From positions 2,112,001 through 2,176,000 of the forward strand of contig OY820591.1 in NCBI GenBank assembly GCA_963555985.3: 64,000 bases of DNA, in the 5' to 3' direction. The notes under the pieces were generated by a model. That model saw nothing but the letters and a program-made list of their open reading frames with translations, searched no databases and had not been told where the DNA came from. Shown here one piece after another: positions 4,661 to 61,346 of the stretch. Position numbers and translations under genes: made by a program. Positions within the stretch are counted from its first letter, which is position 1, and every line of letters starts with the position of its first letter. This DNA comes from Dehalococcoidia bacterium (GTDB lineage Bacteria > Chloroflexota > Dehalococcoidia > Bin125).

Positions 4661-4726
4661 CTCTCCCCCTTGAGAGCCTGTCCCCGCGCAGGCGGGGAGG
4701 GAGATGCCCCGCAGGGGCAGAGGGGG
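4661..4726 (+). repeat. Family-B double-hairpin repeat with a nested palindrome
   Basis: CTCTCCCCCTTGA[GAGCCTGTCCCCGCGCAGGCGGGGA]GGGAGATGCCCCGCAGGGGCAGAGGGGG. Confidence 0.8.
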
Positions 4727-4755
4727 TGAGACGCCCCGCAAAGCGCTCGCCAACA

Positions 4756-4859: not shown

Positions 4860-4914
4860 GTAGGAGCAGCCTGGCTGAGAACGCTCCAACCCACCCCCTG
4901 CCTACACTGACCCC

Positions 4915-7891: not shown

Positions 7892-9766
7892 CTACTCCGC
7901 AGCGATCCGGCGGATTGCGCCTTCCAACATGCGGGCCGAGAGCGGCTGGCCGGTGACCTCGTTGTAGCCCTTCGCATCGACGAGGAACTCGGCGCGAATC
8001 AGCAGGCGTAATTGACCGGTGTTGGCCTCGGGCACTAGGACCTTGCGGTAGCGCGAAAGCACGTCGCCGAGGTTGAGCGGGAACGGGTTGAGGTATTGCA
8101 AGTGCGCGTGCGCGACATCAATCCCGTCGGCGCGCGCGTCGTGCACGGCGGTGAAGACCGAGCCGTAGGTGCTGCCCCAGCTGAGCACGAGCAGATCACC
8201 CGACTCGGGGCCGTCCACCTCGACCGCCGGAATGTCGTTCGCGATCCGGCGGATCTTCTCCGCGCGGAGGTCGGTCATGCGCTGGTGGTTCTCCGGCGAG
8301 TAGGCGACATCACCGGTGATGTCGGCCTTCTCCAGACCGCCGATCCGATGCTCGTAGCCCTTCAAACCCGGCGGCACGAACATGCGCGCACCGGTCTCCG
8401 GATTCCGCGCGTAGGGCTGGAACTCTTCCGGCGGCGGTGGGAGGTGGTGGGTCGAGATGGGCGCGAGTTGCGTCACGTCAGGTACGGGCCAGGGTTCTGC
8501 CGTATTCGCCAGATACGTGTCCGACAACAGCACCACCGGGGTGACGTACTTGAACGCGATCCGCACCGCTTCCAGCACCATGTAGAAGCAGTCACCCGGA
8601 CTCTTGGCGGCGAGCACGCAGAGCGGACTTTCGCCGTTGCGTCCGAACATCACCTGCAACAGGTCGGTCTGTTCCGTCTTGGTCGGCATACCCGTAGACG
8701 GCCCGGAGCGCTGGACATCGAGCACGAGCAGCGGCAGCTCGGTCATCACGGCGAGATTGAGCGCTTCGCTCTTCAGCGCGATCCCGGGACCGCTGGTGCC
8801 GGTCACGCCCAGCCCGCCGCCGTAGGCGGCGCCGATCGCCGAACCGATCGCGGAAATCTCGTCTTCCGCCTGGAAGGTGCGGACGCCGTACTCGCGCAGC
8901 GCGGCCAGTTCGACCAGCACATCGGAGGCGGGCGTAATCGGATAGGAGCCGTAGAACAGCTCCAGGTCGGTCAGGTGCGAGGCCGTGATCAGACCCAGCA
9001 CGAGCGCCTGGTTGCCGGTGATCGTGCGGTACTCGCCGGGCGTGAGCACGGCCGGGGGCACACGAACGTGCGCATCGGCGACCTCGATCGTCTCGCCGTA
9101 AGCGTGGCCGGCGTGCAAGGCGCGGACGTTGGCCTCGGCCACCGCCGGGAGGCGTCCGAAGCGCTGCTGAATCCAGTCCAGCGTCGGCTGGAGGTCGCGG
9201 TCGTAGAGCCAGTAGACCAGGCCCAGCGCGAAGAAGTTCTTGGTGCGCTCCGCGTTCTGCGTAGAGAGCCCCAAGTCTTCGACCGCTGCGACGGCTGAGG
9301 TCGTGATCGGCGCTTTGATGATCCGGTAACCCTCCAGCGAGCCGTCGTTCAGCGGGTTGCTGGGATAACCCGCCTTCTTCAGGTTGCCGGGCGTGAACGC
9401 ATCCTGGTTCACGACCAAGAGGCCACCTTTGGTCAGCGCTGAGAGGTGGGACTTGAGCGCGGCGGGATTCATCGCCACAAGCGTGTCCGGCTCGTCGCCC
9501 GGGGTGAAAATCTGATACTTCGAGAACGAGATCTGGAACGAACTGACGCCGGCCAACGATCCCGCAGGCGCGCGAATCTCGGCGGGGAAGTCCGGCAGGG
9601 TGGAGAAGTCGTTACCGAAGATCGCGGTCGCGTCGGCGAAGCGGTTGCCCGCCAACTGCATCCCGTCGCCGGAGTCGCCCGCAAAGCGGACGGTGACGCG
9701 CTCGCGCTCCTGGATCGGCGTGTTGGTGTTGCCCGATCCGTTCGCCTGCGTTGAAGTGGTGGTCAT
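7892..9766 (-). CDS. korA: 2-oxoacid:ferredoxin oxidoreductase alpha subunit (with fused gamma domain)
   Basis: AGDSGDGMQ, FPAEIRAP, YPITPAS, EDEI, TSGPG. Confidence 0.95.
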   Translation of the reverse strand: MTTTSTQANGSGNTNTPIQERERVTVRFAGDSGDGMQLAGNRFADATAIFGNDFSTLPDFPAEIRAPAGSLAGVSSFQISFSKYQIFTPGDEPDTLVAMNPAALKSHLSALTKGGLLVVNQDAFTPGNLKKAGYPSNPLNDGSLEGYRIIKAPITTSAVAAVEDLGLSTQNAERTKNFFALGLVYWLYDRDLQPTLDWIQQRFGRLPAVAEANVRALHAGHAYGETIEVADAHVRVPPAVLTPGEYRTITGNQALVLGLITASHLTDLELFYGSYPITPASDVLVELAALREYGVRTFQAEDEISAIGSAIGAAYGGGLGVTGTSGPGIALKSEALNLAVMTELPLLVLDVQRSGPSTGMPTKTEQTDLLQVMFGRNGESPLCVLAAKSPGDCFYMVLEAVRIAFKYVTPVVLLSDTYLANTAEPWPVPDVTQLAPISTHHLPPPPEEFQPYARNPETGARMFVPPGLKGYEHRIGGLEKADITGDVAYSPENHQRMTDLRAEKIRRIANDIPAVEVDGPESGDLLVLSWGSTYGSVFTAVHDARADGIDVAHAHLQYLNPFPLNLGDVLSRYRKVLVPEANTGQLRLLIRAEFLVDAKGYNEVTGQPLSARMLEGAIRRIAAE

Positions 9767-10161
9767 CGCTCAACGGCCTCCGCGGACGGCGCGGGCATGG
9801 GCGCGCCGCCCAGACTATCGGGGAAGGAACCTCCGAGCGTGCGCACCCGGAACGAATCCTGCGCACACGATAGACCGGTGCAGCGCAGGATACGCAATAC
9901 CGAAGTGAACACTGTTGGAACGAGGGGAAATCGCGCCACGCGGGCTGAGCATTCGGTTACCCCTGGTACATCCCCGTCAAGTAGAACGCTACGCCCAAAG
10001 GCTCACTCTCCGCAAGTCGTTTCGCAAAGGCGAATGAAAAACGGATGTCGCGTGGCGAACAACGGCGGGCCGCTGCTCGCTTCGCTTCAGAGGGCGGCTG
10101 TGGCAGCCGAGGCACCCGCTGGCAGATGTACGAGAGCGGGCGCCTCAGCTGGCCATCCGGG

Positions 10162-11766
10162 TCAGCCGCCGCCGTCCTCTGTGCCGTCGCCGTCTGCGTC
10201 GTCGGCATTGTCCAGATAGCGGTCCTGGATTTCCTGCGGGATGAGCGCATTCGTCACTTTCCGCATCTGTTCAGCGTCGGCGATCTGGGGGTCGATGAGC
10301 AGGGTCATGCCATTGAAGAGGGTGACGGGGTCCAGCCTCAAGCGATCGATCAGCAACGCGCCCATCACGCCCAGGTAGGTCTGGACGAGTGGGTGGTCGT
10401 AGATGGCGAACATGATTTTTCCTTCTTCGACCCACTTGGCAAAGCCGAGGTTGAAGCCGAACGTGGCGAGCGGGACCTCGGGGTTGGGCCATTGGGCGAA
10501 GAGGATGCTGAGGCCGACGGAATCGGAGAGAGCCATCACAGCCGCAATGTCCCCCTGGGCTGTGCGTTCGAGCAAGGCGTCGGCGGCGTCAGCGCCTTCG
10601 TAGTTCCAGGTTTGGACGCTGCCGTTGGCATAGGTCGCGGCGAGGCCTTCGCAGCGCTCGTGGAGGCCGACATTGTTGGGCTCGTGGATGAGGCAGAGGA
10701 TGTCGCCCTGGGCGCCTTCCTTGTTGAACTGCTCACCGGCGATTTCACCCGCGCGGCGGTCGTTGAGGCCGATGTGGAAGCTGGTCCCGACCTCGGCTGC
10801 GGCCTCCGCACCGGAGTTGAAGGACATGACCGGAATACCGGCGGCTGCGGCTTCGGCAATGGCGGGGGCGAGCTCGTCCGGCGAGACCAGGGTGGTGGCG
10901 ATGGAGACTGCACCGTCTTCGACGCACTGCTGGATGGCTTCGGCCTGGTCCGCCACATCGCCGAACGCCTCCGCGCGCAAGTTGATGCCGAGTGTGGCGG
11001 CAGCGGTGACGGCCGTGTCGGCAGCCACGCCCCAGAAGAGATCTTCGCCGCCGTGGCTGACCACGCAGAACAGGTCGTCGCCAGCGGGCAATTGTGGATC
11101 GAGGACTTCGAACCAGTAGTGCACCCAGGTCCAACCGAGATCGGGGTTGTTGAGCAGGATGTTGTCACGGGCGAAGACCGCCGTCTCGACCACTGCGTTC
11201 GAGGTCGCCATGATCTGCGAGATTTCGCCGGCCAGGAGGCGGCGCTCGACTTCATCGGCGACGGCGTTGTAGTCATCCGTCTCGATCACATCAACACCGG
11301 TGGGGAAGGTCTCGCCGATGCCATCGCACAAGGCGCGCAGCGCGGCCTCATTGGAGTCGACCAGGCAGAGGACGGGCGCGAGCGTCTCGGGGTCGTCCTC
11401 GGCGTGGAAGTGCTCGACAAAGTAGTCGCCCATCTGCCGGCCTGTTTCAGTGAGTTGGGTGCGATACTCGTCGGCGATGCGTTCGGCTCGGGTGGCGAGG
11501 TCGAGCATGATCGACGAGCTGTACCTCACCTCTCCTGAATCGGCGTCGGGGGCGAGGAAGCGCCGCTGCGGTTTCTGCGTCTCGCCCCACTCGCCATCGT
11601 CGCCGCGCTGCTGCAAGCCGATTTCGACGCGGCCGTCATCGAGCCGCTCGACGGAGACGCGGACCTCCAGGGTTTCGTCTTCGCCTCCGTGTCCCGCGGC
11701 CCAAATGCCTCCCAAGGCAGCTGCGCCGATGAGCGCTCCGAGGCCGAGCAAAATCAGTGTGCGCAT
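10162..11766 (-). CDS. Secreted sugar-binding-like (periplasmic binding protein type I) protein, paralog 1
   Basis: Signal/TM segment, N-terminal RLDDGRVEIGLQQ module, C-terminal RbsB-like AAAAGIPVMSFNSG..HIGLNDRRAG..IYDHPLVQTY. Confidence 0.8.
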   Translation of the reverse strand: MRTLILLGLGALIGAAALGGIWAAGHGGEDETLEVRVSVERLDDGRVEIGLQQRGDDGEWGETQKPQRRFLAPDADSGEVRYSSSIMLDLATRAERIADEYRTQLTETGRQMGDYFVEHFHAEDDPETLAPVLCLVDSNEAALRALCDGIGETFPTGVDVIETDDYNAVADEVERRLLAGEISQIMATSNAVVETAVFARDNILLNNPDLGWTWVHYWFEVLDPQLPAGDDLFCVVSHGGEDLFWGVAADTAVTAAATLGINLRAEAFGDVADQAEAIQQCVEDGAVSIATTLVSPDELAPAIAEAAAAGIPVMSFNSGAEAAAEVGTSFHIGLNDRRAGEIAGEQFNKEGAQGDILCLIHEPNNVGLHERCEGLAATYANGSVQTWNYEGADAADALLERTAQGDIAAVMALSDSVGLSILFAQWPNPEVPLATFGFNLGFAKWVEEGKIMFAIYDHPLVQTYLGVMGALLIDRLRLDPVTLFNGMTLLIDPQIADAEQMRKVTNALIPQEIQDRYLDNADDADGDGTEDGGG

Positions 11767-11944
11767 TCCGATCGGTCCTTCCTGTGTGTGGTCGTGACCT
11801 CTGCTGGCTGTGTTGGCGAGTCAGTAGGTGACGCGAACATCGTTGCGAAGCCTCCGCTGGCGGGCGTCGCAGTGAAGATCACTCCTCCGCGTCCAGAAGA
11901 GACCGTCGCCAAAGTGCATAGACCCGGGCTAGAGCGTTCGAGGG

Positions 11945-11978
11945 CACGGGGAAGACGCTCGGAAAGCGCTTCCCCGTG
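11945..11978. terminator. Hairpin after paralog 2
   Basis: CACGGGGAAG(A)CGCT-CGGAA-AGCGCTTCCCCGTG; no U-tract. Confidence 0.45.
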
Positions 11979-11998
11979 CCTTCCCGTGATCACGTCGG

Positions 11999-13552
11999 TT
12001 ACTCGGTGAACATCGTGTCCACCAGTGCCTGCATGTACTCCGCGTCGGCGATTTGAGGTGCGATGAGGAGAGACATGCCGTTGAAATAGGCCACCGGGTC
12101 GAGCCGCCAGCGTTCGGCGATGACCGAGGCGACGGCAGAGAGGTAGGTCTGCATCTCAGGGTGGTCGATGATCGTGAACATCACCGAGCCATCCAAGATG
12201 GAGCGGGCCAGGCCGACGCTGAAGCCGAAGGCTCCGATTTCCAGCTCGGCCTCGCTGTAGTAGCGGGCCACGCGAGCCTCCCAGGTGCTGTCGACGGAGA
12301 GCGTCAGGACGGCGCTGAGATCGCCTTCGGCCATGCGCGCGGTGAGCTCGTCCACGGACGCGGCCGGGTCCTCGGCGGACCAGCGCTCGACGGTGCCGTT
12401 GTAGGTTTCCTCGAGGCCCATGCAGCGGTGGTGCAGACCGACGTTGTTCGGCTCGTGAATGATGCAGAGGACCGTGCCGTCGAGCTCGCGCTGGTTGAAT
12501 TCCTCGCCAGCCATGCGGCCGGCCTCACGGTCGTCCAGCGCGATGTGCAGCGCGGTACCGGTCTCGGCCGCTACGTAGGCGCCGGAGTTGAAGCTGACCA
12601 CCGGGATGTCGGCCTCCAGCGCCTCGCCGATCGCGGGCGAGAGCGCGTCCGGCTCGACCAGGGTAGTGGCGATCACGGCGGCGTCGTTGGCGATGCACTC
12701 GCGGATCGCGGCGGCCTGGTCGGCGGCGTTCGGGTGGGCGCTGAAGTCGATGCTGACGCCGAGCTGTCCGGCGGCGGCAGTACTGACTTCCGAAGCGAGA
12801 CCCCAGAACAGGTCGCCTTCTTCTTCCTCCGCGATCACATGTCCGCTGTGCGAGATCTGGCAGAACGGCGCGTCGCTGGCGGCCGGGTGCTGGTCGACCA
12901 GTTCGATCCAGTAGATCCAGGGCAGCCACTGTCCGGTCGCTTCCTCAACCTCGAGACCGAGCAGCGTGGTCTGGACGCTGGTCGTGAAGACGGCGGCGGG
13001 CGGCGCGTCGGTGAAGCGGGCAGTGAGCTCTTCGCGCAGGGCGTCGTAGTCGGACGCTTCGAGCTGCTCGACCTCGCCAGCGTAAGTGTGCGCAGCGCCC
13101 TCGCAGAGTGCGCCGACGCCGGGGTCGTTGGCGTCGACCACGCAGAGCAGGACGCCGAGTTCGGCTGCGCTCTCCGCGCCTTCCTCAGCTTCTCCGCTTT
13201 CGCTGAGGTAGTCGGTGAAGATCTGGCCGATGTCTTCGCCCTGATCGAATAGGTAGTCGCGGTAGTCGCTCGCCGCTCGCTCCTGCTGCGTCTCAACCGG
13301 AATCACGACCTCAGAACTGTGGTACCGCGTGCCCGTTTCGGCATCGGATGGCAGGAAGCGCGCCTCCGGATGCGCTAGTTCTTGCCACGCGCCGTCTGCG
13401 CCTTGTTGTTGCAAGCTCACCTCAACCCGCCCGTCATCATGACGGGTCAAGGTGGCGCGAACGGTGACGTCACCGTGGTGCGCGGACAGTACCGCGCCCA
13501 GCGCCGCCGCGCCGATCAGGATTCCCGCAACGAGGATCAAGATTGACTTCAC
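11999..13552 (-). CDS. Secreted sugar-binding-like protein, paralog 2
   Basis: Same architecture; GTG start after GGAGG. Confidence 0.8.
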   Translation of the reverse strand: MKSILILVAGILIGAAALGAVLSAHHGDVTVRATLTRHDDGRVEVSLQQQGADGAWQELAHPEARFLPSDAETGTRYHSSEVVIPVETQQERAASDYRDYLFDQGEDIGQIFTDYLSESGEAEEGAESAAELGVLLCVVDANDPGVGALCEGAAHTYAGEVEQLEASDYDALREELTARFTDAPPAAVFTTSVQTTLLGLEVEEATGQWLPWIYWIELVDQHPAASDAPFCQISHSGHVIAEEEEGDLFWGLASEVSTAAAGQLGVSIDFSAHPNAADQAAAIRECIANDAAVIATTLVEPDALSPAIGEALEADIPVVSFNSGAYVAAETGTALHIALDDREAGRMAGEEFNQRELDGTVLCIIHEPNNVGLHHRCMGLEETYNGTVERWSAEDPAASVDELTARMAEGDLSAVLTLSVDSTWEARVARYYSEAELEIGAFGFSVGLARSILDGSVMFTIIDHPEMQTYLSAVASVIAERWRLDPVAYFNGMSLLIAPQIADAEYMQALVDTMFTE

Positions 13553-13574
13553 GGCAAACCTCCAAGTGAAATCC

Positions 13575-13604
13575 AGCCTCGACGCCCGCGCGGGCGTCGA
13601 GGCT
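13575..13604. terminator. Perfect 30-bp palindrome between paralogs 3 and 2
   Basis: AGCCTCGACGCCCGC-GCGGGCGTCGAGGCT. Confidence 0.5.
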
Positions 13605-13630
13605 TAGGGGCGTGTTGGGCAGCGCACATG

Positions 13631-15175
13631 CTACTCCGCGTACATCGAGTCGACGACCCGCTGCATGTACTCCGCGTCCGCGATCTGGGGGCGGATCAGC
13701 AGCGACGCGCCGTCGAAGTAGGTCACCGGGTCCAGCCGCCAGCGCTCGGCCATGACCGCCGCGACGGTCGACATGTAGGCCTGCAGCTCCGGATGGTCGA
13801 GGATCGTGAACATGACCGAACCGTCGAGTACGCCGCGAGCTAGCCCGACGCTGAAGCCGAATCCGGCGACCGGCACAATCTCGCCCCGACGCCAGTTGAC
13901 AACCCGCGCGTCCCACGCGCTGTGCACGGAGAGCGTGAGCATCGCGCTCACGTCTTCCTCGTCCAGTCGCTCCCTCAGCTCAGAGCGCACCCGAGCCGGG
14001 TTCTCTGCCGACCAGCGCTCGACATCGCCCTGATAGGTCTCCTCAAAGCCGTCGCAACGTTCGTGCAGTCCGACGTTGTCCGGTTCGTGCAGAATGCAAA
14101 GCGCCGTGCCCTCGATGTCGCGACGATTGAACTCTTCGCCGGCGATGCGGCCCGCCTCATGATCATCGAGCGCGATGTGCAGCGCCGTGCCGATTTCATC
14201 CGCGGCCACTACGCCGGAGTTGAACGAGACCACCGGGATGTCGGCGGCGAGCGCCTCGTCAATGGCCGGAGCAAGCTCGTCAGGCTCGACCAGCGTGGTC
14301 GCGATCGTGGCCGCGCCACTGTTCACGCACTCGCGGATGGCCGCCGCTTGATCGGCGACGTTGCTGTGCGCGCTGAAATCAACGTTGACTCCGAGTTGCG
14401 CCGCCGCCGCAGTGCTGACCTCGGCCGAGAGACCCCAGAAGAAGTCGTCCTCGTCCTCGATCACCGTGCCGCTGTGGGTGATCTGGCAGAACTGCGCATC
14501 GGCAGACGCCAGGTGCTGATCGAGCAACTCGATCCAGTACGTCAGTCGCGGCCGGTAACGGGCCTTATCCCGGACCTCGAGCGCGAGCATGGTGGTCGGC
14601 ACGCTGGTCGTCAGCATGGCGACCGGCGCCTGCACGGCCATCCGCGCGCGCAGCTCCGCGCGCAAGTCGTCCCAATCGTCATGTTTGACGCGCACGACCG
14701 GTCCGCGATACACGGATTCGACTCCATCGCAGAGCGCCTCGACCCCCTGGTCGTCCGGATCGATCACGCACAGGAAGCGACCTGGTTCGAGTTCGGGATA
14801 GTTGGAGTCGGTGAAGCGATCGTTGTATCGCGCGGCGATGCGGGCGCCGGCGGTGACGAGGTAGTCGTAGTACGCGCTGGTAGTGCGCTCCTCGTGCGTT
14901 TCCACCTCAACGGCGACCTCGATAGTAAGCGCGTCGGTCTCGAGCGTCTCGCCGACATCGGCGCCGGCCGCCAAGAAGCGGTTCTCGGGCCGCTGCGTCT
15001 CGCCCCAGACACCATCGCCGTCGAGTTGCTGCAATCCGACTTCAACACGGCCGTCTTTGAGACGCTCGGCGGTGATCCGCACGTCCGTCGTGCCGATCTG
15101 GGTGGCGGCCCAGATCGCGCCCAGCGTCGCGGCGCCGATCAGGAAACCAAAGCCGATCAGGATCAGGGAACGCAT
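13631..15175 (-). CDS. Secreted sugar-binding-like protein, paralog 3
   Basis: Same architecture; start MRSLILIG after AAGGA. Confidence 0.8.
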   Translation of the reverse strand: MRSLILIGFGFLIGAATLGAIWAATQIGTTDVRITAERLKDGRVEVGLQQLDGDGVWGETQRPENRFLAAGADVGETLETDALTIEVAVEVETHEERTTSAYYDYLVTAGARIAARYNDRFTDSNYPELEPGRFLCVIDPDDQGVEALCDGVESVYRGPVVRVKHDDWDDLRAELRARMAVQAPVAMLTTSVPTTMLALEVRDKARYRPRLTYWIELLDQHLASADAQFCQITHSGTVIEDEDDFFWGLSAEVSTAAAAQLGVNVDFSAHSNVADQAAAIRECVNSGAATIATTLVEPDELAPAIDEALAADIPVVSFNSGVVAADEIGTALHIALDDHEAGRIAGEEFNRRDIEGTALCILHEPDNVGLHERCDGFEETYQGDVERWSAENPARVRSELRERLDEEDVSAMLTLSVHSAWDARVVNWRRGEIVPVAGFGFSVGLARGVLDGSVMFTILDHPELQAYMSTVAAVMAERWRLDPVTYFDGASLLIRPQIADAEYMQRVVDSMYAE

Positions 15176-15250
15176 AATTCCGTCCTTTCGCGTCGAACGA
15201 TATCGCTGTCGTTCTAGCATCCACTCCCGGTAGGGGGAGCCGGGAGCCAG

Positions 15251-16852
15251 TTAGCGGCGACGATGCTCCAGATCGTCGAGGAAGGTCTGAGCGTATTCCG
15301 CATCCCAGACTTCAGGCTGGATGGTGATCCGCAGGTTGTGCAGATACGACGCCGGCAGACGCAGGCCATCCACGTACAACAGCGCCGCGACCGCCAAGCG
15401 CGATTGCAAATCAGGGTAGTCCGGAATCGCGAACAGCATCCGTCCGTCGGCGACTCCGCGATAGATGCGCGCGTCCAGACCGAAGCTGGCCCAGGACATG
15501 TCGATCAGCTCACCGTCCTCTGTCAATTGCCAGATTCGCCGCGAGATGGAACTGTTCAGCGTCAGCAGCGACCCGACGCCTCCCTCGCCAATCCGCTCAA
15601 GGATCGCGGCCTCGATCTCGCCCGGTCCTATCAAATCGTGCACCCGCAGACGCTCGACCGCGCCGCTGTACGTCTCCTCAAGGCCGTCGCAGCGTTCTTC
15701 GAGGCCGATGTTGTTCGCCTCGTGGATGACGCAGAGCACCGTTCCCTCAATCTCGGCGGCGCTGAACGACTCTCCGGCCAGGCGTCCGGCTTCGTGGTCG
15801 TCTATGCCCAGGTGCAGCGACGATCCGCCCTCGGCGGCGGTGTCCGTGCCTGAGTTGAAGCTGATCACGCGCGTCCCGGCTGCCCGCGCCTCGGCCACAG
15901 CCGGGCCGATCGCCTCGGCGTCGCCGAACGTCGTCGCCACCGCCGCCGCGCCGTCCTCCACGCATTCGCGGATCGCGCCCGCCTGTTCCGCGCTGTCGGC
16001 GTAGCTGGCGATCCGCGGCGACAGCCCTAGCTGGGCCGCCGAACGCTCACTGACCTCGTTCGCCAGACCCCAGAAGAAGTCGCCAATCTCGCCCCGGTGC
16101 GTGACGACGCAGAAGAGCTCGTCGGCTTCCGGCAGGAGCGGCGTCACCGGCGTCGCCCAATAGAGCATCGGCGTATCAAGCTCGTTCGCCTTGCGCGCGC
16201 GGCCGGCGACAACAGCGGCGAGATCGCCCGTCGCGATCATCCCGTAGCCGTCGGCGTTCAGCAGCCAGTCGCTAATCTCGCGCTCCGCCGCCGCCAGGTC
16301 TTCGCCAAGCAACAACCGATCCACCTGCCCCGCGTACGAGCCCGCCAGACCCTCGCAGAGCAGATCAATCTCCTCCTCCACCAGTCCGTCCGAGATGCAG
16401 AGAAGCGGACGCAGCGGCTCGCCCGCCTGCTCCTGCACGCCCGTCCACCACCGCGCCGGCAGCGTGCCCGACTCCAGCCAGAACTCATGCACCTGACTCG
16501 CGATCGCTTCGGCGTGAGTCGCCGCCGACACCGCGATCTGCGAGCTGTGATAAGGCTGGCCCGATTCTGCCTCGAGGGACAAGAAGCGCGCCTCCGGACG
16601 GATCGTCGCGCCCCAGCCCCCGTCGGAATCTTGCTGTTGAAGTCCGACTTCGACCCGGCCATCATCGTGGCGTTCGGCCACGAGCCGGAGCTTGATACTC
16701 GATTCGGACGGTTCGCGCGCCTCGGCGCTGACGGATGGGGCCTCTTCGAACATCATCGGTCGCAACGCCGCACCCAGCGCAAACGCCGCCAGCAGGCTGA
16801 AGACCATGATCATCCAAGCTGCACGGGTCGGCAGTGCTCGAAAGTTGCGCAT
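15251..16852 (-). CDS. Secreted sugar-binding-like protein, paralog 4
   Basis: Same architecture; start MRNFR after GGAAGGA. Confidence 0.78.
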   Translation of the reverse strand: MRNFRALPTRAAWMIMVFSLLAAFALGAALRPMMFEEAPSVSAEAREPSESSIKLRLVAERHDDGRVEVGLQQQDSDGGWGATIRPEARFLSLEAESGQPYHSSQIAVSAATHAEAIASQVHEFWLESGTLPARWWTGVQEQAGEPLRPLLCISDGLVEEEIDLLCEGLAGSYAGQVDRLLLGEDLAAAEREISDWLLNADGYGMIATGDLAAVVAGRARKANELDTPMLYWATPVTPLLPEADELFCVVTHRGEIGDFFWGLANEVSERSAAQLGLSPRIASYADSAEQAGAIRECVEDGAAAVATTFGDAEAIGPAVAEARAAGTRVISFNSGTDTAAEGGSSLHLGIDDHEAGRLAGESFSAAEIEGTVLCVIHEANNIGLEERCDGLEETYSGAVERLRVHDLIGPGEIEAAILERIGEGGVGSLLTLNSSISRRIWQLTEDGELIDMSWASFGLDARIYRGVADGRMLFAIPDYPDLQSRLAVAALLYVDGLRLPASYLHNLRITIQPEVWDAEYAQTFLDDLEHRRR

Positions 16853-22234: not shown

Positions 22235-23167
22235 TCAGTCGCGGCCGAACGCCGCACGCAGTTCGGCCGCAATCTGGTCGAGGGCCTGGTTACCTTCGGG
22301 CACGGCCTGGAACGCACCCACGAAGCCGTGGATCACACCGTCGTAGCGGGTGCAGCTTGACTGGTTGCCGGCGGCGGCGAGGGCAGCGGCATAGGCTTCG
22401 CCTTCGTCGCGGAGCGAGTCGTACTCGGCGGTGATGGTCAGGGCTCTGGGCAGGTTGGAGAGGTCGTCGGCTCGGATCGGCGAGGCATAGGGCTGCGATC
22501 CCTCGGACTCGTCGTTCAGATACAGATCCCAGAACCAACGCATCCCCGCCTCCGAAAGACCGTACTCGCCGCGACCGTTGACCTTGTAGGACTCGGTCTC
22601 GAAGTTGAAGTCCGTGACCGGATAGATCAAGATCTGGGCAGCAATCTGCGGCCCGCCCCGATCGCGCGCCATCTGCGAGACCACGGCGGCCAAGTTGCCC
22701 CCGGCCGAGTCCCCGGCCACTGCGATCTGGTCGCTCGGGCCGCCCTGCTGGGCGTACATGCCGGTGATCCACTCGAGCGCCGCGTAGCAGTCCTCAGCCG
22801 CCGCCGGATAGGTCGCCTCCGGCGCGAGCCGATAGTCAACCGACAGCACGCTGGTCGGAACCCGGTTGCAGAGCGCTCGGCAAACCGCGTCGTGCGAGTC
22901 GAGGTCGCCGATCACCCAGCCGCCGCCGTGGAAGTAGACCACGGTCGGCAAGTCGCGCGGGTCGTCGGTGGGCAGGTAGCCGCGAGCGGGGATATCGCCG
23001 GCCGGTCCGGGGATGACCATCTCGTGGACCTGGGCGACGGGTTCGGGCTCGCCCTGTGGTCGCAGCGCGGCCATGGCCTTACGAGCTTCCTCGGGCGACA
23101 GTTCATTGAATGGCGTCGCGCCGGCTCGCATGTCAAGGATGGCCTGAGTTTCAGCGGTGACGGGCAT
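22235..23167 (-). CDS. HSL-family esterase/lipase
   Basis: HGGGW, GDSAGG, EYDSLRDEG, HGF. Confidence 0.93.
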   Translation of the reverse strand: MPVTAETQAILDMRAGATPFNELSPEEARKAMAALRPQGEPEPVAQVHEMVIPGPAGDIPARGYLPTDDPRDLPTVVYFHGGGWVIGDLDSHDAVCRALCNRVPTSVLSVDYRLAPEATYPAAAEDCYAALEWITGMYAQQGGPSDQIAVAGDSAGGNLAAVVSQMARDRGGPQIAAQILIYPVTDFNFETESYKVNGRGEYGLSEAGMRWFWDLYLNDESEGSQPYASPIRADDLSNLPRALTITAEYDSLRDEGEAYAAALAAAGNQSSCTRYDGVIHGFVGAFQAVPEGNQALDQIAAELRAAFGRD

Positions 23168-23232
23168 GGTGTCTCCTGTCGGTTGACTCTTGCGCTCCCC
23201 TCGCAAGGGGATGTCCACGCATCATCGAGATT

Positions 23233-23351
23233 CCGTCATTGCCGCGCTCCGCCGCGGCAATCTCGCCTTGTTGTGCACCGACGGCCGTGCCGAACACAGC
23301 CAGATACCCGCGGCAAGCGCGGGTATGACGGTGGTATGTGGGCAGGTCTCC
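23233..23351. repeat. Family-A REP doublet with one MITE-like end
   Basis: CCGTCATTGCCGCG...GGGTATGACGG followed by GGCAGGTCTCC. Confidence 0.82.
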
Positions 23352-23354
23352 TGT

Positions 23355-24281
23355 CTAAATCCGCTCGTTGATGAAGGCGGCGGCTTCCTTGAGGCACTCG
23401 ACGCCGGTCGGGATGATCGCGAACATCATGAACGGGTCGTGAATCACGCCGTCGTAGCGGTGCACCGTCACCTCACCGCCCGCTGCCTCAATTGCCGCGC
23501 CGTAGGCCTCGCCCTCGTCGCGCAGGGGATCGAACTCGGCTGTCTGGATCAGCGCAGGGGCGAGACCGGAGAGGTCCCCGGCCTGCAAGGGCGATGCATA
23601 CGCTTCCTGGCCCGATCCGGCATTCGGGAGATAGTGATCCCAGAACCAGACCATCGAAGCGCGGGTCAGCAGATAGCCCTCGGCGTTCTCCGAGTAGGAC
23701 GGGTAGTCGTAGTTGTGATCGGTCACCGGCACGTGCAACACCTGCGCCGCGATCGCGGGGCCGCCCTTGTCGCGCGCCATCTGCGACACGACTGCTGAGA
23801 GATTGCCGCCGGCTGAGTCCCCGCAGACCGCCATCCGCGAACCGTCCACGCCGATCTCGGCGCCGTTCTCTGCCACCCACGCCGCCGCCGCGTAGCAGTC
23901 GTCGGCTGCGGCCGGGTACTTATGCTCTGGAGCGAGCCGATAATCGACCGAAACTACGGCCGCCTCACCAATCTCAGCTAAGAGCTGCTTGCAGGTGCCG
24001 TCGTGCGAGCCGATGTTGCCAATCACCCAACCGCCGCCGTGGAAGTACATCACCACCGGCAGGTTGTCGCCCGCTGAGGCGTAGATGCGCACCGGAATAT
24101 CGCCGCCGGGCCCGGGCACGGTGCGGTCTTCGACCCGCGCCGGCTCGGGCGCGCCGGCCTGCATCATGGCGAAGCCCTCGATCATGGCCCGCGCCTCTTC
24201 CGGCGTCTGCTCGGAGATATCCGGTCCGCCCTGCTGCTCCAGCATCGCCAACAGTCCCTGAGTCTCTGGTGTTGGGGGCAT
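23355..24281 (-). CDS. HSL-family esterase/lipase
   Basis: HGGGW, GDSAGG, EFDPLRDEG. Confidence 0.93.
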   Translation of the reverse strand: MPPTPETQGLLAMLEQQGGPDISEQTPEEARAMIEGFAMMQAGAPEPARVEDRTVPGPGGDIPVRIYASAGDNLPVVMYFHGGGWVIGNIGSHDGTCKQLLAEIGEAAVVSVDYRLAPEHKYPAAADDCYAAAAWVAENGAEIGVDGSRMAVCGDSAGGNLSAVVSQMARDKGGPAIAAQVLHVPVTDHNYDYPSYSENAEGYLLTRASMVWFWDHYLPNAGSGQEAYASPLQAGDLSGLAPALIQTAEFDPLRDEGEAYGAAIEAAGGEVTVHRYDGVIHDPFMMFAIIPTGVECLKEAAAFINERI

Positions 24282-25945: not shown

Positions 25946-26052
25946 CAGCGTCTTCCAATCTGCTGCCTATACTCCGACTGGCTGCGTGAGTACCCGCAGT
26001 GTATTCGGCGGCGCTCCCAAAACGTGCACCGCCTCCGGATAAGGACATCCCG

Positions 26053-26982
26053 ATGAAAGCCGATCCCCAGACCATCGCGCTGAACGAAATGATCGAAGCC
26101 GCCTCGGCGCAGGGCAAGCCTTGGCACGAGATGGAGCCGCAGGAGCTGCGCGACGTGCTCGCCGAGGGCGGCCCGTTCGGCCCGCCGCCGCCGCGCCTGG
26201 ACGACATCGCACAGGAACGCAATGTACCGGGCCCGGCCGGCGACATCCCCGTCCGCGTCTTCATTCCGCCCGTCGTGCGCGGCGTCTACCTGCACATCCA
26301 CGGCGGCGGCTGGGTGATCGGCTCCCACGACGGCGCCGACGAGTCCCTCTGGGCGCGCGCCCAGGCCACGCAGCAGGCGGTCGTCTCGGTCGGCTACCGG
26401 CTCTCGCCCGAGCACCCCTATCCCGCGCCCAACGAGGACTGCGAGGCAGCCGCCGTCTGGCTGGTCGAGAACGGTCAGTCGGAGTTCGGCACCGACGTGT
26501 TCACGATCGGCGGCGAGTCGGCGGGCGGCCACCTCTCTGCGACCACCCTGCTGCGAATGCGCGACAACCACGGCTACACCGGTTTCAAAGGCGCAGCCCT
26601 CACCTACGGCGTCTACGACCTCCGCCACTCACCCTCAGCGCGTCTGTGGGGCGACCGCAACCTGATCCTCTCCTCGCCGATCATGGAGTGGTTCATCGAC
26701 CACTACGTCACCCCCGAACAACCCGAACTGCGCGACCTCCCCGACGTCACCCCCCTCCTCGCCGACCTCTCCGACATGCCGCCGGCCATCTTCACCGTCG
26801 GAACCCTCGATCCCCTGCTCGACGACAGCCTCTTCATGGCCGCCCGCTGGCAAGCCGCCGGCCACGAGACCGAGCTCCACGTTTTCCCCGAAGCCCCCCA
26901 CGGCTTCGACGGCTTCCCCACGCCGGCGGGGATGGACGCGACCAATCGGGTCAACAACTTCCTCTCAGGCTGTTTGGGGTAG
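26053..26982 (+). CDS. HSL-family esterase
   Basis: HGGGW, GESAGG, LDPLLDD, HGF. Confidence 0.92.
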   Translation: MKADPQTIALNEMIEAASAQGKPWHEMEPQELRDVLAEGGPFGPPPPRLDDIAQERNVPGPAGDIPVRVFIPPVVRGVYLHIHGGGWVIGSHDGADESLWARAQATQQAVVSVGYRLSPEHPYPAPNEDCEAAAVWLVENGQSEFGTDVFTIGGESAGGHLSATTLLRMRDNHGYTGFKGAALTYGVYDLRHSPSARLWGDRNLILSSPIMEWFIDHYVTPEQPELRDLPDVTPLLADLSDMPPAIFTVGTLDPLLDDSLFMAARWQAAGHETELHVFPEAPHGFDGFPTPAGMDATNRVNNFLSGCLG

Positions 26983-26987
26983 CCAAG

Positions 26988-27029
26988 CTCTCCCCCTTTG
27001 GGGGAGATGTCGCGGAGCGACAGAGGGGG
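26988..27029 (+). repeat. Family-B repeat, left flank of the DUF559 gene
   Basis: CTCTCCCCCTTTGGGGGAGATGTCGCGGAGCGACAGAGGGGG. Confidence 0.85.
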
Positions 27030-27036
27030 CTGCCCG

Positions 27037-27396
27037 CTAAAGCAACTCGGCTCCAATTCGGTCCACCACCGCCTCAAGGTCTCGATGAACCTCGTCGTTC
27101 CAGAATCGGAGCACGCGATCACCCATTGCCTCCAGGTACTGAGTACGTTCGGTGTCGTGTTCCGTCCGCTCTGAATGTTGACCACCGTCCAGTTCAACGA
27201 TCAGTTTCTCAGGGACGCAGGCAAAGTCCGCAACATAGCGACCAATCGGATGTTGCCGCCGGAACCGGTAACCAGCAAGTTGGCGGCGGCGTAGCCGACC
27301 CCAGAGCAGTACTTCTGCGTCGGTAGCGTTCGAGCGCAGTTTTCTGGCAAATCCGATTTGCTCTCGAGGCGCATACTCGTAGTCGCGTTGTGCCAT
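27037..27396 (-). CDS. DUF559 (Vsr-like) endonuclease
   Basis: ARKLR.NATDAE..LW..LR, FRRQHPIG.Y.ADF, ELDGGQH, VLRFWN. Confidence 0.93.
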   Translation of the reverse strand: MAQRDYEYAPREQIGFARKLRSNATDAEVLLWGRLRRRQLAGYRFRRQHPIGRYVADFACVPEKLIVELDGGQHSERTEHDTERTQYLEAMGDRVLRFWNDEVHRDLEAVVDRIGAELL

Positions 27397-27414
27397 TGTC
27401 GACGCCTCGGCCAG

Positions 27415-27455
27415 CTCCCTCCGCCCCTACGGGGCACCTCCCCCAGAGAGGAAGG
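27415..27455 (-). repeat. Family-B repeat, right flank of the DUF559 gene (inverted)
   Basis: Reverse complement CCTTCCTCTCTGGGGGAGGTGCCCCGTAGGGGCGGAGGGAG. Confidence 0.78.
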
Positions 27456-27464
27456 TCTTGAGAG

Positions 27465-29090
27465 CTAATTCACCCGCTTCTCCACACCTTCCCAGTACGC
27501 CTCGCGCAACTCGAACTTCTTCAGCTTGCCCGTCGCCGTGCGCGGCAGCGTCTCCACAAACTCCACCCGACGCGGAATCTTGAAACCCGCCATCGTCGCC
27601 CGACAGTGCGCGACGATATCGTCCCTCGTCACATCATGACCCTCCCGGGGCACAATCAGCGCCAGCGGCGTCTCACCCCACTGCTCTGAGGGAATCCCGA
27701 TCACCGCCGCCTCTAGCACGGCGGGGTGGTCGTACAACACGTCTTCGACCTCGATCGACGAGATGTTCTCGCCGCCGGAGATAATCACGTCTTTCGCCCG
27801 GTCGACGATGTTGATGTAGCCGTCCTGGTTGACCGTGGCCATGTCGCCGGTGTGGAACCAGCCGTCCACGATCACCTTGTCGGTCTCCTCCTGCTGCTCC
27901 CAGTAGCCGCGCAGGACGACGTTGGAGCGGGCGACGACTTCTCCGATCTCGGTGTCGTCCCAGGCGACCTCCTTGCCGGAATCGCGCACGACCTTGACTT
28001 CCACGCCGATCACGTCATGGCCGGCGCGAACCTTGGTGCGGAAGTAGCCGTCCTCATCCACGCCGAGGTACGGCTTGACCTCCGAGACGGTGAGGATCGG
28101 CGAGGTCTCGGTTAGGCCGTAGATCTGGATGAACTCCCAACCCAGTTCCTGCTCCAGGCGCTCGATGAACGCCTGCGGGGGCGGTGCGCCGGCGACCGTG
28201 AAGCGCGGGCGAACGGTGATGTTGTAGTCGTCCTTGGCGCCAAATTCGAGGATGCGCGCAAGCACGGCGGGAGCCATGCACGCAAACGTGCAGCCCTCGT
28301 CCTGGATCAGGCGGTAGATGTCGTGCGCCTCCGGCGCGCGCAGCACTACGTGCTTGCCGCCCATAGCCGTGATCGCGTACACCCCGCCCCAGCCGTTCGC
28401 GTGGAACATCGGCAGCGTCCACAACTCCGCGTCGTCCTGACAGATGCGCAGGTGGGCAATGAAGTTGTAGGCGTTGATGTAGGCGTTGCGATGCGTGATC
28501 ATCACGCCCTTGGGCCGCGCGGTCGTCCCGGAGGTGTAGTTGATCGAGAGCAGGTCGGTTTCGGCCAGCCCCGGATCGGGCGGCTGCGCGGTCGAATGGC
28601 TGCCGATCCAATCCTCGTAGTTCGTCCAGCCCGGATGAATCGGCGCGTCCTCAAAGGGGATGGCGATGAAGTGCTCGACCGTGCTGATTCCCTCTCGAAC
28701 GTCATCGACGAGGTGCAGAAACTCCGCATCGACCAGCACGACCTTCGAGCCGGAATGCTCCAGCATGTACTCGAAGTCGGAGGGCACGAGCCGGTAGTTC
28801 ATCGGTACGATCACTGCGCCGATCGCGGCGGTCGCGTAGAACGTCTCCAGGAACTGGTGCGAGTTGGGCGCGATGATCGCAACCCGATCGCCCTTGCCGA
28901 TCCCGGCCGCGAGCAGAGCATGAGCCTGCTGATTGACGCGAGCGTTGAACTCGGACCAGGTGAGGCGAGCGTCGCGGTCGACGACGGCCTCAGCAGGGCC
29001 GTAGAGCTTCGACGCACGGCGCACAAAATCATTGACCAACAGCGGGACTTCCATCACAAACTCCAATCCGCCGACCTCGTTGACCGCCAT
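27465..29090 (-). CDS. Acyl-CoA synthetase (AMP-forming)
   Basis: YTSGTTARPKG, YGLTE, FHTGD, TATGK. The start may be the second Met (MEVP). Confidence 0.94.
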   Translation of the reverse strand: MAVNEVGGLEFVMEVPLLVNDFVRRASKLYGPAEAVVDRDARLTWSEFNARVNQQAHALLAAGIGKGDRVAIIAPNSHQFLETFYATAAIGAVIVPMNYRLVPSDFEYMLEHSGSKVVLVDAEFLHLVDDVREGISTVEHFIAIPFEDAPIHPGWTNYEDWIGSHSTAQPPDPGLAETDLLSINYTSGTTARPKGVMITHRNAYINAYNFIAHLRICQDDAELWTLPMFHANGWGGVYAITAMGGKHVVLRAPEAHDIYRLIQDEGCTFACMAPAVLARILEFGAKDDYNITVRPRFTVAGAPPPQAFIERLEQELGWEFIQIYGLTETSPILTVSEVKPYLGVDEDGYFRTKVRAGHDVIGVEVKVVRDSGKEVAWDDTEIGEVVARSNVVLRGYWEQQEETDKVIVDGWFHTGDMATVNQDGYINIVDRAKDVIISGGENISSIEVEDVLYDHPAVLEAAVIGIPSEQWGETPLALIVPREGHDVTRDDIVAHCRATMAGFKIPRRVEFVETLPRTATGKLKKFELREAYWEGVEKRVN

Positions 29091-36801: not shown

Positions 36802-36956
36802 GGAGACGTTTGTGTAAGTCGATCGTTCCGTCATTGCCGCGCTCCGCCGCGGCAATCTCGCGGTGAGGGCGACGACGGTGCAGATAACGGCGAGATACCC
36901 GCGGCAAGCGCGGGTATGACGGAGTCTTGATTGGCTCGAGTTTTGCAAAGGTCTCC
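36802..36956. mobile_element. 155-bp MITE carrying a family-A doublet, inserted into another palindrome
   Basis: TIRs GGAGACGTTTGTGTAAGTC and GGAGACCTTTGCAAAACTC (14/19); CTGC duplicated at 36798-36801 and 36957-36960. Confidence 0.8.
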
Positions 36957-44430: not shown

Positions 44431-44590
44431 CTCTCCCTCCTCCCCCTTGAGGAGACCTGCGCGTAATCCCAAATTCCGTCATTCCCGCGCAGGCGGGAAT
44501 CCATGCAGCGCGTCTAGCGGCATCTGGATTCCCGCTTGCGCAGACCGTCGCAACCCCCACTTCCGTCATTCCTGCGTAGGCAGGAATCTC
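44431..44590. repeat. Composite repeat: truncated family-B, MITE end and family-A arms
   Basis: CTCCCCCTTGA|GGAGACCTGCGCGTAATC..CGTCATTCCCGCGCAGGCGGGAATCCA..CGTCATTCCTGCGTAGGCAGGAATCTC. Confidence 0.75.
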
Positions 44591-58456: not shown

Positions 58457-59879
58457 GGACGCCCCCAAAAACTCTCCCCCTGCATCGCGGGGGGAGATGT
58501 CACGAAGTGACAGAGGGAGGTCCGCCCGCACACTGATCGCGCGACCGGCACGCCAACACAAGCACAAAGCCGGATGGGCCGCAAACGGCCTTTCTCCCCA
58601 ACCAGCACCTTCGGCAGCATCGCAGCCGCCCCGAGCCGACAGCCGCGAAACGCGCCTCTTCGGCTACCACCTGCGAACGTTCGACTCCTTCCGCGAACCC
58701 GCCTTCACCTGGTTCTTCGTCTCCACGCTGGGGCAGATGTACTCCGCCATCGGCCAGATGTTTGTCCGCTCCTTCCTCGTCTACGAACTCACCGGCTCCT
58801 ACGCCGCGATGGGACTAGTCGCCGTCGCCGGAGCCGTCCCCCAATTCTTGCTCGGACCCTACGGCGGCGTCCTCGCCGACCGCTACGCCAAGAAATCCGT
58901 CACCCTCGTCTTCCAGATCGTCGGTTTCGGCAACACCTTCCTCATCGGCACCCTTGCGCTGCTGGGACTGCTGGAATTCTGGCACCTGCTCGTCTCCGGC
59001 GTCTTCCAGGGCGTCCTCGTCGCCCTCATGGTGCCCGCGCGCCAGGCAATGGTCTCCGAGATCGTCAGCCGCGAACGGATCATGAACGGCGTCGCCCTCA
59101 ACACTGCCGCCATGAACCTGATGCAGTTCACCGCGCCCCTAATCGGCGGAATCCTGCTCGCCACTGCCGGCGCCGGCGTCACCTTCTACGTCATGGCCGG
59201 CTGCTACGCCTTCGCCACACTCACCCTCCTGCCCGTCCCCCGCGTACCCGCCCAAGCCGCCGGCGGTCGCGGCGGACTCGGCGAAGCCCTGCGCGACATC
59301 GCCGACGGCTTCCGCTACATGGCCCGTCAACGCGAACTGCGCCTGATCCTGCTGCTCTCCTTTGGAGTCTCAGCGCTCGGTATGCCCTTCCAGGGGCTCC
59401 TGCCCGGATTCGTTCAAGACGCCTTCAACGCCGACTCCGCTCTGGCCAGCCTCTTCATGTCGTTCTCAGCGATCGGAGCGTTTCTGGCGGCGATGCTGAT
59501 CGCATCCTTGCGCCGCGCCGGACGCGGCAAGCTGCTCTTGGCAATGGGAGCGGTCGTCGGTGCAGCCACAATGGCCATCGCCCTCTCCCCCTGGCTCTGG
59601 CTGAGCCTGCCAATCATGATCTTCATGGGCGTCGGCCAGGCCGGACGCATGACCATGGCCTCAGCCCTAATTCAGGAACTCGCCCAACCCGCCTATCGCG
59701 GCCGCGCCATGTCCGTTCTGATGATGCAGTTCAGTCTCATGCAAGCCGGCGTCTTCATCCTCGGCATCGCCGCCGAACTGGTCGGCATCCGCGCCGCCGT
59801 CAGCGTCGTCTCACTCGTCTTGCTTGCCCTCGTCGCCCTCTTCGCGCTCGGCTCACCCACCATGCGCCGCCTACAGTGA
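58446..59879 (+). CDS. MFS transporter (start uncertain)
   Basis: GGVLADRYAKK motif A, PARQAMVSEIV, about 12 hydrophobic segments. Confidence 0.88.
   Translation: MAARDAPKNSPPASRGEMSRSDRGRSARTLIARPARQHKHKAGWAANGLSPQPAPSAASQPPRADSRETRLFGYHLRTFDSFREPAFTWFFVSTLGQMYSAIGQMFVRSFLVYELTGSYAAMGLVAVAGAVPQFLLGPYGGVLADRYAKKSVTLVFQIVGFGNTFLIGTLALLGLLEFWHLLVSGVFQGVLVALMVPARQAMVSEIVSRERIMNGVALNTAAMNLMQFTAPLIGGILLATAGAGVTFYVMAGCYAFATLTLLPVPRVPAQAAGGRGGLGEALRDIADGFRYMARQRELRLILLLSFGVSALGMPFQGLLPGFVQDAFNADSALASLFMSFSAIGAFLAAMLIASLRRAGRGKLLLAMGAVVGAATMAIALSPWLWLSLPIMIFMGVGQAGRMTMASALIQELAQPAYRGRAMSVLMMQFSLMQAGVFILGIAAELVGIRAAVSVVSLVLLALVALFALGSPTMRRLQ
58472..58520 (+). repeat. Family-B repeat
   Basis: CTCTCCCCCTGCATCGCGGGGGGAGATGTCACGAAGTGACAGAGGGAGG. 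Confidence 0.85.
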
Positions 59880-61299: not shown

Positions 61300-61346
61300 A
61301 CCAAATCCCCTCTCCCCCCCGCACCGCGAAGTCCGTCCCCGCGTAA

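Follow-up and report, generated by a model that had tools for sequence, protein, structure and literature searches.

A DUF559 nuclease gene between inward-facing mirror repeats in a Dehalococcoidia bacterium, and a possible partnership of YcjD-like nucleases with BoxC/PIT/TM motifs

A stretch of 64,000 nucleotides (nt) from a Dehalococcoidia bacterium (GenBank assembly GCA_963555985.3, contig OY820591.1, positions 2,112,001 to 2,176,000) was analyzed at its full length and is called the window here. Its G+C content is about 65%. The window contains a single DUF559 gene, which encodes a protein of 119 amino acids (aa). A preliminary description of the same DNA had placed this gene between inward-facing copies of a double-hairpin repeat, and our analysis confirmed the arrangement. 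The features are as follows.

27037..27396, (-) strand: DUF559 (YcjD-like, Vsr/EDxHD-fold) nuclease gene, 119 aa; Pfam PF04480, E=1.5e-41
26988..27029, (+) strand: left repeat copy, A-type, downstream of the nuclease gene in gene sense; covariance model 50.1 bits
27414..27457, (-) strand: right repeat copy, G-type (..GAG-G-TG..CG-GAG..), upstream of the nuclease gene in gene sense; covariance model match at 27414-27445, 45.8 bits

The neighbors of the nuclease gene are convergent, with an alpha/beta-hydrolase gene at 25999-26982 (+) and an AMP-dependent ligase gene at 29090-27465 (-). The left copy lies 5 nt past the hydrolase stop codon, and the right copy lies 9 nt past the ligase stop codon.

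The repeat consists of a pyrimidine arm, a loop, a purine arm, a second hairpin and a G-rich end segment. A covariance model of the purine arm, second hairpin and end segment was built from 15 copies of the window and of two related loci, L001 and L025. With filters off, the model gave exactly six matches in the window (39-51 bits), and the next match scored 13.6 bits. All six copies were training members, so the informative part of this result is the score gap. The string GGGGGAGRTG occurred five times in the window, against 0.43 expected. No Rfam family matched the whole window at gathering thresholds. The left copy (26988-27029) reads CTCTCCCCC-TTT-GGGGGAGATG-TCGC-GGA-GCGA-CAGAGGGGG. Its double hairpin folded at -13.8 kcal/mol (z score -3.79), and its end segment points to the nuclease gene. 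In the right copy, the first hairpin has decayed and reads CTTCCTC at the place of CCTCCCCC in the intact orthologous copy of L001; purine arm, second hairpin (CCCC-GTA-GGGG) and end segment are retained. As single-stranded DNA the right copy folded no better than shuffled sequences (z score -0.59).

Read backwards, without complementing, the end segment GAGGGGG gives the purine arm GGGGGAG, and the two thus form a mirror repeat. The mirror GGGGGAG(A)...(A)GAGGGGG, with G.G-C, A.A-T and T.A-T triads allowed, was present in all six window copies. The second hairpin had been said to vary in sequence while keeping its pairing. Pairing was kept in 69 of 69 cells in the 15 copies (window, L001 and L025), and two of the five pairs changed on both sides (13 cells). 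One flanking position covaried three ways among pyrimidine arm, purine arm and mirror segment, as T/A/A, C/G/G and G/C/T, with five of the 15 copies each.

A homopyrimidine arm, a loop and a complementary homopurine arm make up the plan of the BoxC/PIT/TM motifs, and the mirror-image end segment places the window repeat in the same class. The repeat is therefore a lineage-specific variant of the known BoxC/PIT/TM intrastrand-triplex motif and not a new kind of element. The E. coli form, TMECO, formerly named BoxC and PIT, has the pattern CCCTCNCCC-N3-6-GGGNGAGGG-N3-GGGNGAGGG (Holder et al. 2015, PMC4666352). Like the window repeat, BoxC/PIT/TM(ECO) motifs have a pyrimidine arm, a loop, a purine arm and a mirror-symmetric second purine segment, and they are intergenic and multi-copy, occur as solos and inverted pairs, and have raised variability around them. 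Unlike them, the window repeat has CTCCCCC/GGGGGAG arms, and its second loop is a hairpin with compensatory changes. The TMECO pattern, with 9-nt stems and a 3-nt second loop, was not matched by the window repeat, in which a linker of 10-16 nt with its own hairpin replaces the short loop. Linkers of 10-36 nt were also found in loci from Binatia, Alphaproteobacteria, Nitrospirota and Acidobacteriota.

The accessible text of Holder et al. (PMC4666352) presents the motifs, first described from E. coli in the 1990s, as numerous across hundreds of genomes and as linked to local instability. TMECO oligonucleotides of E. coli formed a purine-motif intrastrand triplex in vitro by circular dichroism and nuclear magnetic resonance. 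E. coli K-12 carries 23 TMECO motifs, five times as inverted pairs and with raised local variability, and Salmonella is given as lacking them. No function or mobilizing agent is named there for the motifs and no associated mobility gene is reported, which differs from the window case. The words DUF559, ycjD and endonuclease occur 0 times in that text. The same 21-mer also appears in a preprint about a G-quadruplex/hairpin switch, with 0 mentions of ycjD or DUF559 in its accessible text. A variant with the arms CCCTCGCCCC / GGGGAGAGGG would have a G-A mismatch in the hairpin and is the commonest type in E. coli, according to Table 1 of Holder et al. (PMC4666352). The same variant was found in Desulfobacteria and Betaproteobacteria loci (flanks of L006, L008, L021 and L061). 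Such a conserved mismatch next to an enzyme of Vsr fold deserves a test.

The preliminary description had asked whether DUF559 genes are flanked by such repeats across genomes. Species-representative genomes were scanned with a protein alignment. Of 593 matches to the pattern, 582 were confirmed, and the best 80 of these, with 14 phylum names, were taken as loci. The hairpin finder required a pyrimidine arm of 6-10 nt, a loop of 2-8 nt and a complementary purine arm, with an optional mirror segment within 1-39 nt. As controls, we took the open reading frames (ORFs) of these loci that have at least 100 aa and keep a distance of over 400 nt to the nuclease gene (n=734). All 80 loci are counted in the denominators, even the three that are incomplete and those truncated at a contig end. 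The counts were as follows.

Hairpin within 150 nt upstream: DUF559 loci 59/80; control ORFs 32/734; size-matched control ORFs (100-200 aa) 8/208
Hairpin within 150 nt downstream: DUF559 loci 55/80; control ORFs 42/734; size-matched control ORFs 4/208
Hairpin within 150 nt on both sides: DUF559 loci 41/80; control ORFs 8/734; size-matched control ORFs 2/208

For both sides, the difference between DUF559 loci and control ORFs had a Fisher p of 1e-38. When the mirror segment was required, 50 loci had a hairpin upstream, 49 downstream and 33 on both sides. Hairpin density was 5.49 per kb near the nuclease gene and 0.135 per kb elsewhere. A mirror segment accompanied 295 of 339 hairpins, where shuffled flanks predicted 30. 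Orientation was then read from the closest full motif on either side of the gene. Of 52 two-sided loci, 40 had both motifs facing inward, so that their mirror segments point at the nuclease gene (25% expected, p 6e-15); the others were 7 (-,-), 3 outward and 2 (+,+). Another 19 of the 80 loci were one-sided. The inward gap was 316-438 nt (median 355), indicating that the gene fills the space between the repeats. Three loci without a hairpin by the finder (L012, L017 and L023) showed motifs with longer loops by eye, and many of the 80 carry the published TMECO pattern exactly. Outside the scan, types such as CCCCC-N5-GGGGG-N3-GGGGG lie by the DUF559 gene of a Picosynechococcus PCC 7002 plasmid, and the motif was also seen near the N. 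gonorrhoeae gene whose product was crystallized. Long ORF calls of relatives run through the repeats, giving 'HPxPLPxGEREG'-like peptides at both ends. No description of a link between DUF559/YcjD and these repeats was found in the literature covered, which leaves out most subscription journals, including the original BoxC/PIT papers. The link appears to be undescribed so far.

The window taken by itself allows a simpler account, in which the repeats are gene-end repeats of two convergent neighbors and the nuclease gene merely lies between them. Five of the six window copies sit 5-33 nt past the stop codon of a co-oriented ORF (mechanical ORF calls), as the preliminary description had noticed, and co-oriented gene-end copies on two convergent genes automatically give an inverted pair. 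However, the arrangement recurs in most of the 80 unrelated loci and is rare around control ORFs, and the orientation is consistent relative to the nuclease gene. In L025, moreover, the same two neighbor genes carry repeats in the opposite, outward orientation. We consider a coincidence of this kind very improbable. A fixed orientation of the repeats at gene ends was rejected: far from the nuclease gene, 11 repeats were co-oriented and 23 anti-oriented after stop codons in the 80 loci, on crude ORF calls with 36 repeats inside called ORFs.

A nuclease tree was built from 81 rows and 105 columns. One well-supported clade joined loci from Binatia, Nitrospirota, Acidobacteriota and Chloroflexota, and all four had GGGGGAG arms and linkers of 35-36 nt. 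The tree explains the long-linker label (17 of 72 scored rows) with 10 changes; shuffled labels took 15.4, and none of 300 shuffles was as low. Clustering of the arm-sequence class was weak, with 36 changes where shuffles needed 44.9, and is of a kind that kinship can create. Kinship inflates label-clustering tests of this type, yet the long-linker clade crosses phyla. Repeat architecture thus co-clusters with the nuclease tree across phyla.

L001 and L025 allowed a comparison of the repeats around the same genes. Over the syntenic 20 kb, the covariance model gave 13 matches in L001, 4 in L025 and 2 in the window. At one junction of convergent genes, two inward-facing repeats stand in L001 and at most a remnant in L025, and the window has a spacer of 7 nt. 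A further spacer differs in repeat content among all three loci. Repeat copies have therefore been gained or lost between syntenic relatives. The window pair combines a G-type and an A-type copy, and the L001 pair a G-type and a C-type copy. L001 also has three tandem copies of about 170-190 nt at 9560-9990, each made of a ligase 3' fragment, a full repeat and the first nuclease codons, and the whole nuclease gene follows the last copy only.

The proteins flanking the nuclease are 84-95% identical between the window and L001 or L025, and the proportion of synonymous differences (pS) of the ligase gene is 0.46-0.51. Identity is 67% and 51% between the nuclease alleles, whose pS of 0.75-0.80 is saturated. 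This synonymous saturation shows that the nuclease alleles are far older than the flanking genes. The proportion of nonsynonymous differences (pN) of the nuclease gene was 0.20-0.33, indicating that selection still acts on it. Over the final 60 codons of the two flanking genes, pS reached 0.66-0.79, whereas 21 other gene ends averaged 0.55 (p 0.01). It climbs towards the cassette, with 0.66-0.79 at 26800-26982 and 27465-27650 and 0.39-0.47 in the far halves of the two genes. Either the cassette was replaced by recombination that dragged its flanks along, or mutation is locally raised. Raised variability around TM motifs was reported by Holder et al. (PMC4666352).

These alleles bear on a second account, that of a homing-type selfish gene. 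The repeats would spread by other means, and a free-standing DUF559 homing endonuclease would cut the spacer of empty inward pairs; we regard this as unlikely. Copying-in would then occur by double-strand-break repair with the two repeats as homology arms, a step we find equally doubtful. Empty inward pairs with spacers of 10-60 nt exist in the 80 loci and have the same geometry as the filled pairs; 19 have a gap below 100 nt. E. coli K-12 also has one, at 164547-164631 (L085 248-332), with a 17-nt spacer. The nearest characterized relative of the nuclease is a dimeric homing endonuclease that cuts a pseudopalindrome, and divergent alleles at one syntenic site, with synonymous divergence climbing towards that site, would also be seen with co-conversion tracts. 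However, close pairs (<100 nt) were about equally frequent in all orientations, with 19 inward, 19 outward and 28 tandem, and the homology arms would be only about 35-45 nt long. With one gene per 20-kb locus and at most two places per E. coli genome, there is no sign of within-genome spread, and the L025 gene lies between outward-facing repeats. No pair of filled and empty alleles of the nuclease gene was found among the window, L001 and L025, all of which are filled.

The two copies of an empty inward pair (L003, L020, L055 and others, and E. coli K-12) are usually of different subtypes, differing in the arms or in having a TTA loop or a CCG loop. L039 carries arrays of alternating repeat copies at 4641-5370 and 10329-10943, with conserved spacers of 105-108 nt, similar to BIME arrays.

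E. coli offers a further view of repeat number. A natural stretch with ycjD and the downstream motif was used as the query, and 60 rows were sampled evenly down the ranking. Rows with ycjD (n=37) had 11-27 matched places (median 18), and rows without it (n=23) had 1-18 (median 5). The two groups thus differed clearly. However, the split follows phylogroups and so represents few independent events and no independent evidence; the contrast is suggestive only. The gene was present in 3378 of 5426 complete E. coli genomes. In E. coli without ycjD the site is occupied by eefRABCD, according to the available part of PMC12817139. In E. coli K-12, a degenerate hairpin lies over the ycjD stop codon, and a full TMECO lies about 170 nt downstream. 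Between the gene and this TMECO there is a duplicated ycjD 3'-end fragment (L081 5200-5420), which suggests an older second cassette or a rearrangement.

The nuclease itself belongs to a very large family. Its PF04480 score was 141.1 bits, above the curated cut-off of 20.6, and the only Pfam matches were DUF559 and MTES_1575, both of restriction-endonuclease fold. In one length-limited search, 4904 relatives passed, and among the matches listed, the closest relatives of the window proteins were in Chloroflexota/Dehalococcoidia assemblies. The NCBIfam model PRK09767 (YcjD) scored 104 bits, under its equivalog cut-off of 218, and the window protein is therefore not an equivalog of E. coli YcjD. 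NCBIfam Vsr gave a weak match (E 0.083), and Vsr models stayed under their cut-offs. A profile of relatives matched PDB 3HRL ('endonuclease-like protein', NGO0050) at E=3.7e-39 and the catalytic domain of I-Bth0305I at E=3e-5. The AlphaFold model of the nuclease (pLDDT 83.4) was searched with Foldseek, which again put these two structures ahead, with 3HRL first (E 1.5e-7, TM-score 0.83 on target) and 3R3P second (E 1.6e-4), and returned E. coli Vsr (1CW0/1VSR) at ranks 8-9. The predicted fold is restriction-endonuclease-like, close to those of 3HRL, I-Bth0305I and Vsr. In an alignment of 24 relatives, D57, E68, G71, H74 and D81 were invariant and D70 was nearly so. By analogy, the acidic and histidine residues are putative catalytic residues in an E..D..H..D pattern; the motif name EDxHD is taken from papers.

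The window nuclease shares its catalytic domain with I-Bth0305I, which forms a dimer through the EDxHD domain, cuts a pseudopalindromic site and is part of a mobile element (as described in parts of PMC3239194 and PMC3384342). I-Bth0305I differs in being encoded in a phage group I intron and in having an added N-terminal DNA-binding region. The window protein is a bare domain with a short helical N-terminus, and its gene is intergenic and chromosomal. The fold superfamily also includes E. coli Vsr and Caulobacter VsrA, and here the difference is that no cytosine methyltransferase gene adjoins the window nuclease gene.

There is a third account, in which the nuclease has a host function as a repair or processing enzyme, for example in Vsr-like mismatch repair or in clearing hairpin or triplex fork blocks. 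We give it a small chance. The repeats would then insulate or throttle a potentially toxic gene, or collect as a by-product, which is similarly improbable to us. In the part of PMC12907096 on Caulobacter VsrA, this DUF559-containing protein causes an SOS response when a solitary cytosine methyltransferase is absent. The window gene is present once, on the chromosome, purifying selection maintains it (pN 0.20 and pS 0.75 in one comparison), and its stop codon and likely ribosome-binding region abut the repeats, all of which fit a host function. On the other hand, its direct neighbors are the hydrolase and AMP-ligase genes and not a methyltransferase gene. A host function also leaves unexplained the mirror-image repeats at both ends in the inward-facing loci and the repeat architecture that follows the nuclease tree across phyla. 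Holder et al. (PMC4666352), in the text available, ascribe no promoter or terminator activity to the motifs, and a scan of 26800-27600 gave 0 promoter and 0 terminator sites.

We give about an even chance to a REPIN/RAYT-like partnership that uses a Vsr-fold nuclease, with the DUF559 protein as the cognate enzyme of the repeat family. RAYTs are HUH tyrosine transposases that cut single strands through covalent intermediates. A nuclease gene flanked by inverted copies of a dispersed repeat, as in REPIN/RAYT systems, was found in the window and in the 40 inward-facing loci. The resemblance extends to a usually single-copy chromosomal nuclease gene between inverted copies of the genome's palindromic repeat, to repeats found singly, in inverted pairs and in alternating arrays as well (L039), and to a repeat type that tracks the enzyme lineage. 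The RAYT/REP analogy drawn in the preliminary description is apt because the association recurs across phyla, repeat type clusters on the tree and repeat copies turn over. The differences are chemical and structural. The DUF559 enzyme has a predicted hydrolytic Vsr/EDxHD fold, the window repeat has mirror (triplex-type) symmetry that REPs lack, and no GTAG/CGTC tag of REPs was seen in it. A Pfam scan of the window gene revealed no HUH (Y1) transposase between the repeats.

In the proposed partnership, the single inward-facing repeat pair around the DUF559 gene would correspond to the REPs on either side of a RAYT gene. The nuclease would recognize the folded or paired repeat and nick or cut there, probably as a dimer by analogy with its homing-endonuclease relative. 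Repair of the break would spread, delete or exchange repeat copies. Now and then, repair may swap the nuclease cassette itself by recombination across the flanking repeats. A broader form of the proposal, in which YcjD-like DUF559 nucleases are partner enzymes of BoxC/PIT/TM triplex-forming repeats throughout bacteria and mechanistically unlike REPIN-RAYT, is one we hold tentatively, its chance being a little below even.

Several observations weigh against the partnership. Synteny of the window with L001 and L025 extends over 20 kb, with a DUF559 gene at the same place in all three. There is one nuclease gene in the window and one per locus in the scan. The upstream repeat (27414-27457) is decayed, the window copies are only 56-71% alike apart from one 90% pair, and no target-site duplications were seen as flanking direct repeats of five window copies. 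The 80 loci are the best-scoring ones only and represent only the YcjD-like subfamily; under the strict rule, 9 of them had a full motif on neither side, and 12 of the 52 two-sided loci, including L025, were not inward. On a Deinococcus plasmid outside the scan, the repeats by the DUF559 gene face outward. The nuclease tree is weak, with 8 of 78 inner branches well supported. In E. coli, sampled O157:H7 rows and one row of enterotoxigenic E. coli without ycjD keep 12-18 matched places, with 12 in O157:H7. The available text of Holder et al. (PMC4666352) reports an in vivo footprint without a stable triplex and no link of the motifs to promoters, terminators or mobility. As to chemistry, the proposal relies on a hydrolytic 119-aa nuclease. 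We know of no strand-transfer chemistry for such an enzyme and of no precedent for the copying step.

The preliminary description had gone further and proposed a mobile unit of about 470 bp. We saw no sign that this unit moves as a unit: beyond its single copy, its synteny in two relatives and its decayed upstream repeat, a plasmid survey found a relative of the gene in only 32 of 72,556 records at E<=1e-15, mostly on very large replicons. The cassette is thus not typical plasmid cargo. The target-site duplications and several near-identical copies expected of an insertion sequence or miniature inverted-repeat transposable element were not found in the window. Of the three joint grounds that had been named for giving up the idea, synteny in relatives was found, while flanking of DUF559 genes exceeded that of other genes.

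For a class of bacterial repeats that has been known for a long time without an explanation, the DUF559 family may supply the missing partner enzyme. If so, a function would be gained both for a Pfam family with thousands of members and for E. coli repeats known since the 1990s. The system would be a second repeat-nuclease symbiosis beside REPIN-RAYT and chemically different from it. In it, a hairpin-plus-mirror (triplex-type, non-B) DNA structure would be the target of a minimal hydrolytic nuclease of Vsr fold, whose cuts would drive repeat spread, loss and exchange. A solved structure exists for DUF559 (3HRL), and no biochemistry was found for the stand-alone YcjD-like form. E. coli K-12, with ycjD and 23 motifs, makes both the nuclease and the motif directly testable.

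The four solo copies reported earlier at 4661, 46467, 57589 and 58472 were real, with starts at 4661, 46468, 57589 and 58473. The two truncated copies reported near 44431 and 61309 did not hold up as such; they share only the pyrimidine arm, in the first case with part of the loop, and then continue as another repeat. The features are listed below.

4661..4727, (+) strand: solo repeat copy with an extra small hairpin (TCCCCGC-GCAG-GCGGGGA) nested in loop 1; covariance model match at 4696-4727, 46.6 bits
46468..46506, (+) strand: solo repeat copy with a short second hairpin (GCC-GGA-GGC), 33 nt after the stop codon of a + ORF; covariance model 39.1 bits
57589..57637, (+) strand: solo repeat copy, 12 nt after the stop codon of a + ORF; covariance model 50.8 bits, fold z score -4.99
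58473..58520, (+) strand: solo repeat copy, 16 nt after the stop codon of a + ORF; covariance model 48.1 bits, 90% identical to the 57589 copy
44431..44454, (+) strand: pyrimidine arm and loop only, then a different repeat (GGAGACCTG..CCGTCATTCCCGCGCAGGCGGGAATCC); no covariance-model match
61309..61330, (+) strand: pyrimidine arm only, then the same other repeat family as at 44431; no covariance-model match above 7 bits

The finder rule recovers four of the six window copies as intact. The exceptions are the decayed copy at 27414-27457 and the 4661 copy, whose loop 1 is interrupted. A clean double-hairpin fold was obtained for four of the six (z scores -2.2 to -5.0). The piece at 44431 is either an interrupted repeat copy or unrelated.

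A second, unrelated repeat of about 100 nt occurs in the window at 4757-4857, 23232-23331 and 36827-36922, with partial copies at about 44476 and 61473. It has hairpin ends and terminal TCCGTCAT...ATGACGGA (GTCATTGCCGCGC..GCGGCAATC and GATACCCGCGGCAAGCGCGGGTATGAC). Pieces related to it come after the pyrimidine arms at 44431 and 61309, and the small hairpin inside loop 1 of the 4661 copy was noted alongside them. One repeat family may be inserting into the other in the window.

Paralogous genes were also observed in the window. Three alpha/beta-hydrolase paralogues lie at 22235-23218, 23355-24281 and 25999-26982, the last being the neighbor of the nuclease gene. At 10232-16694, four paralogous units of about 1.6-1.8 kb each stand in tandem, with 60-78% identity.

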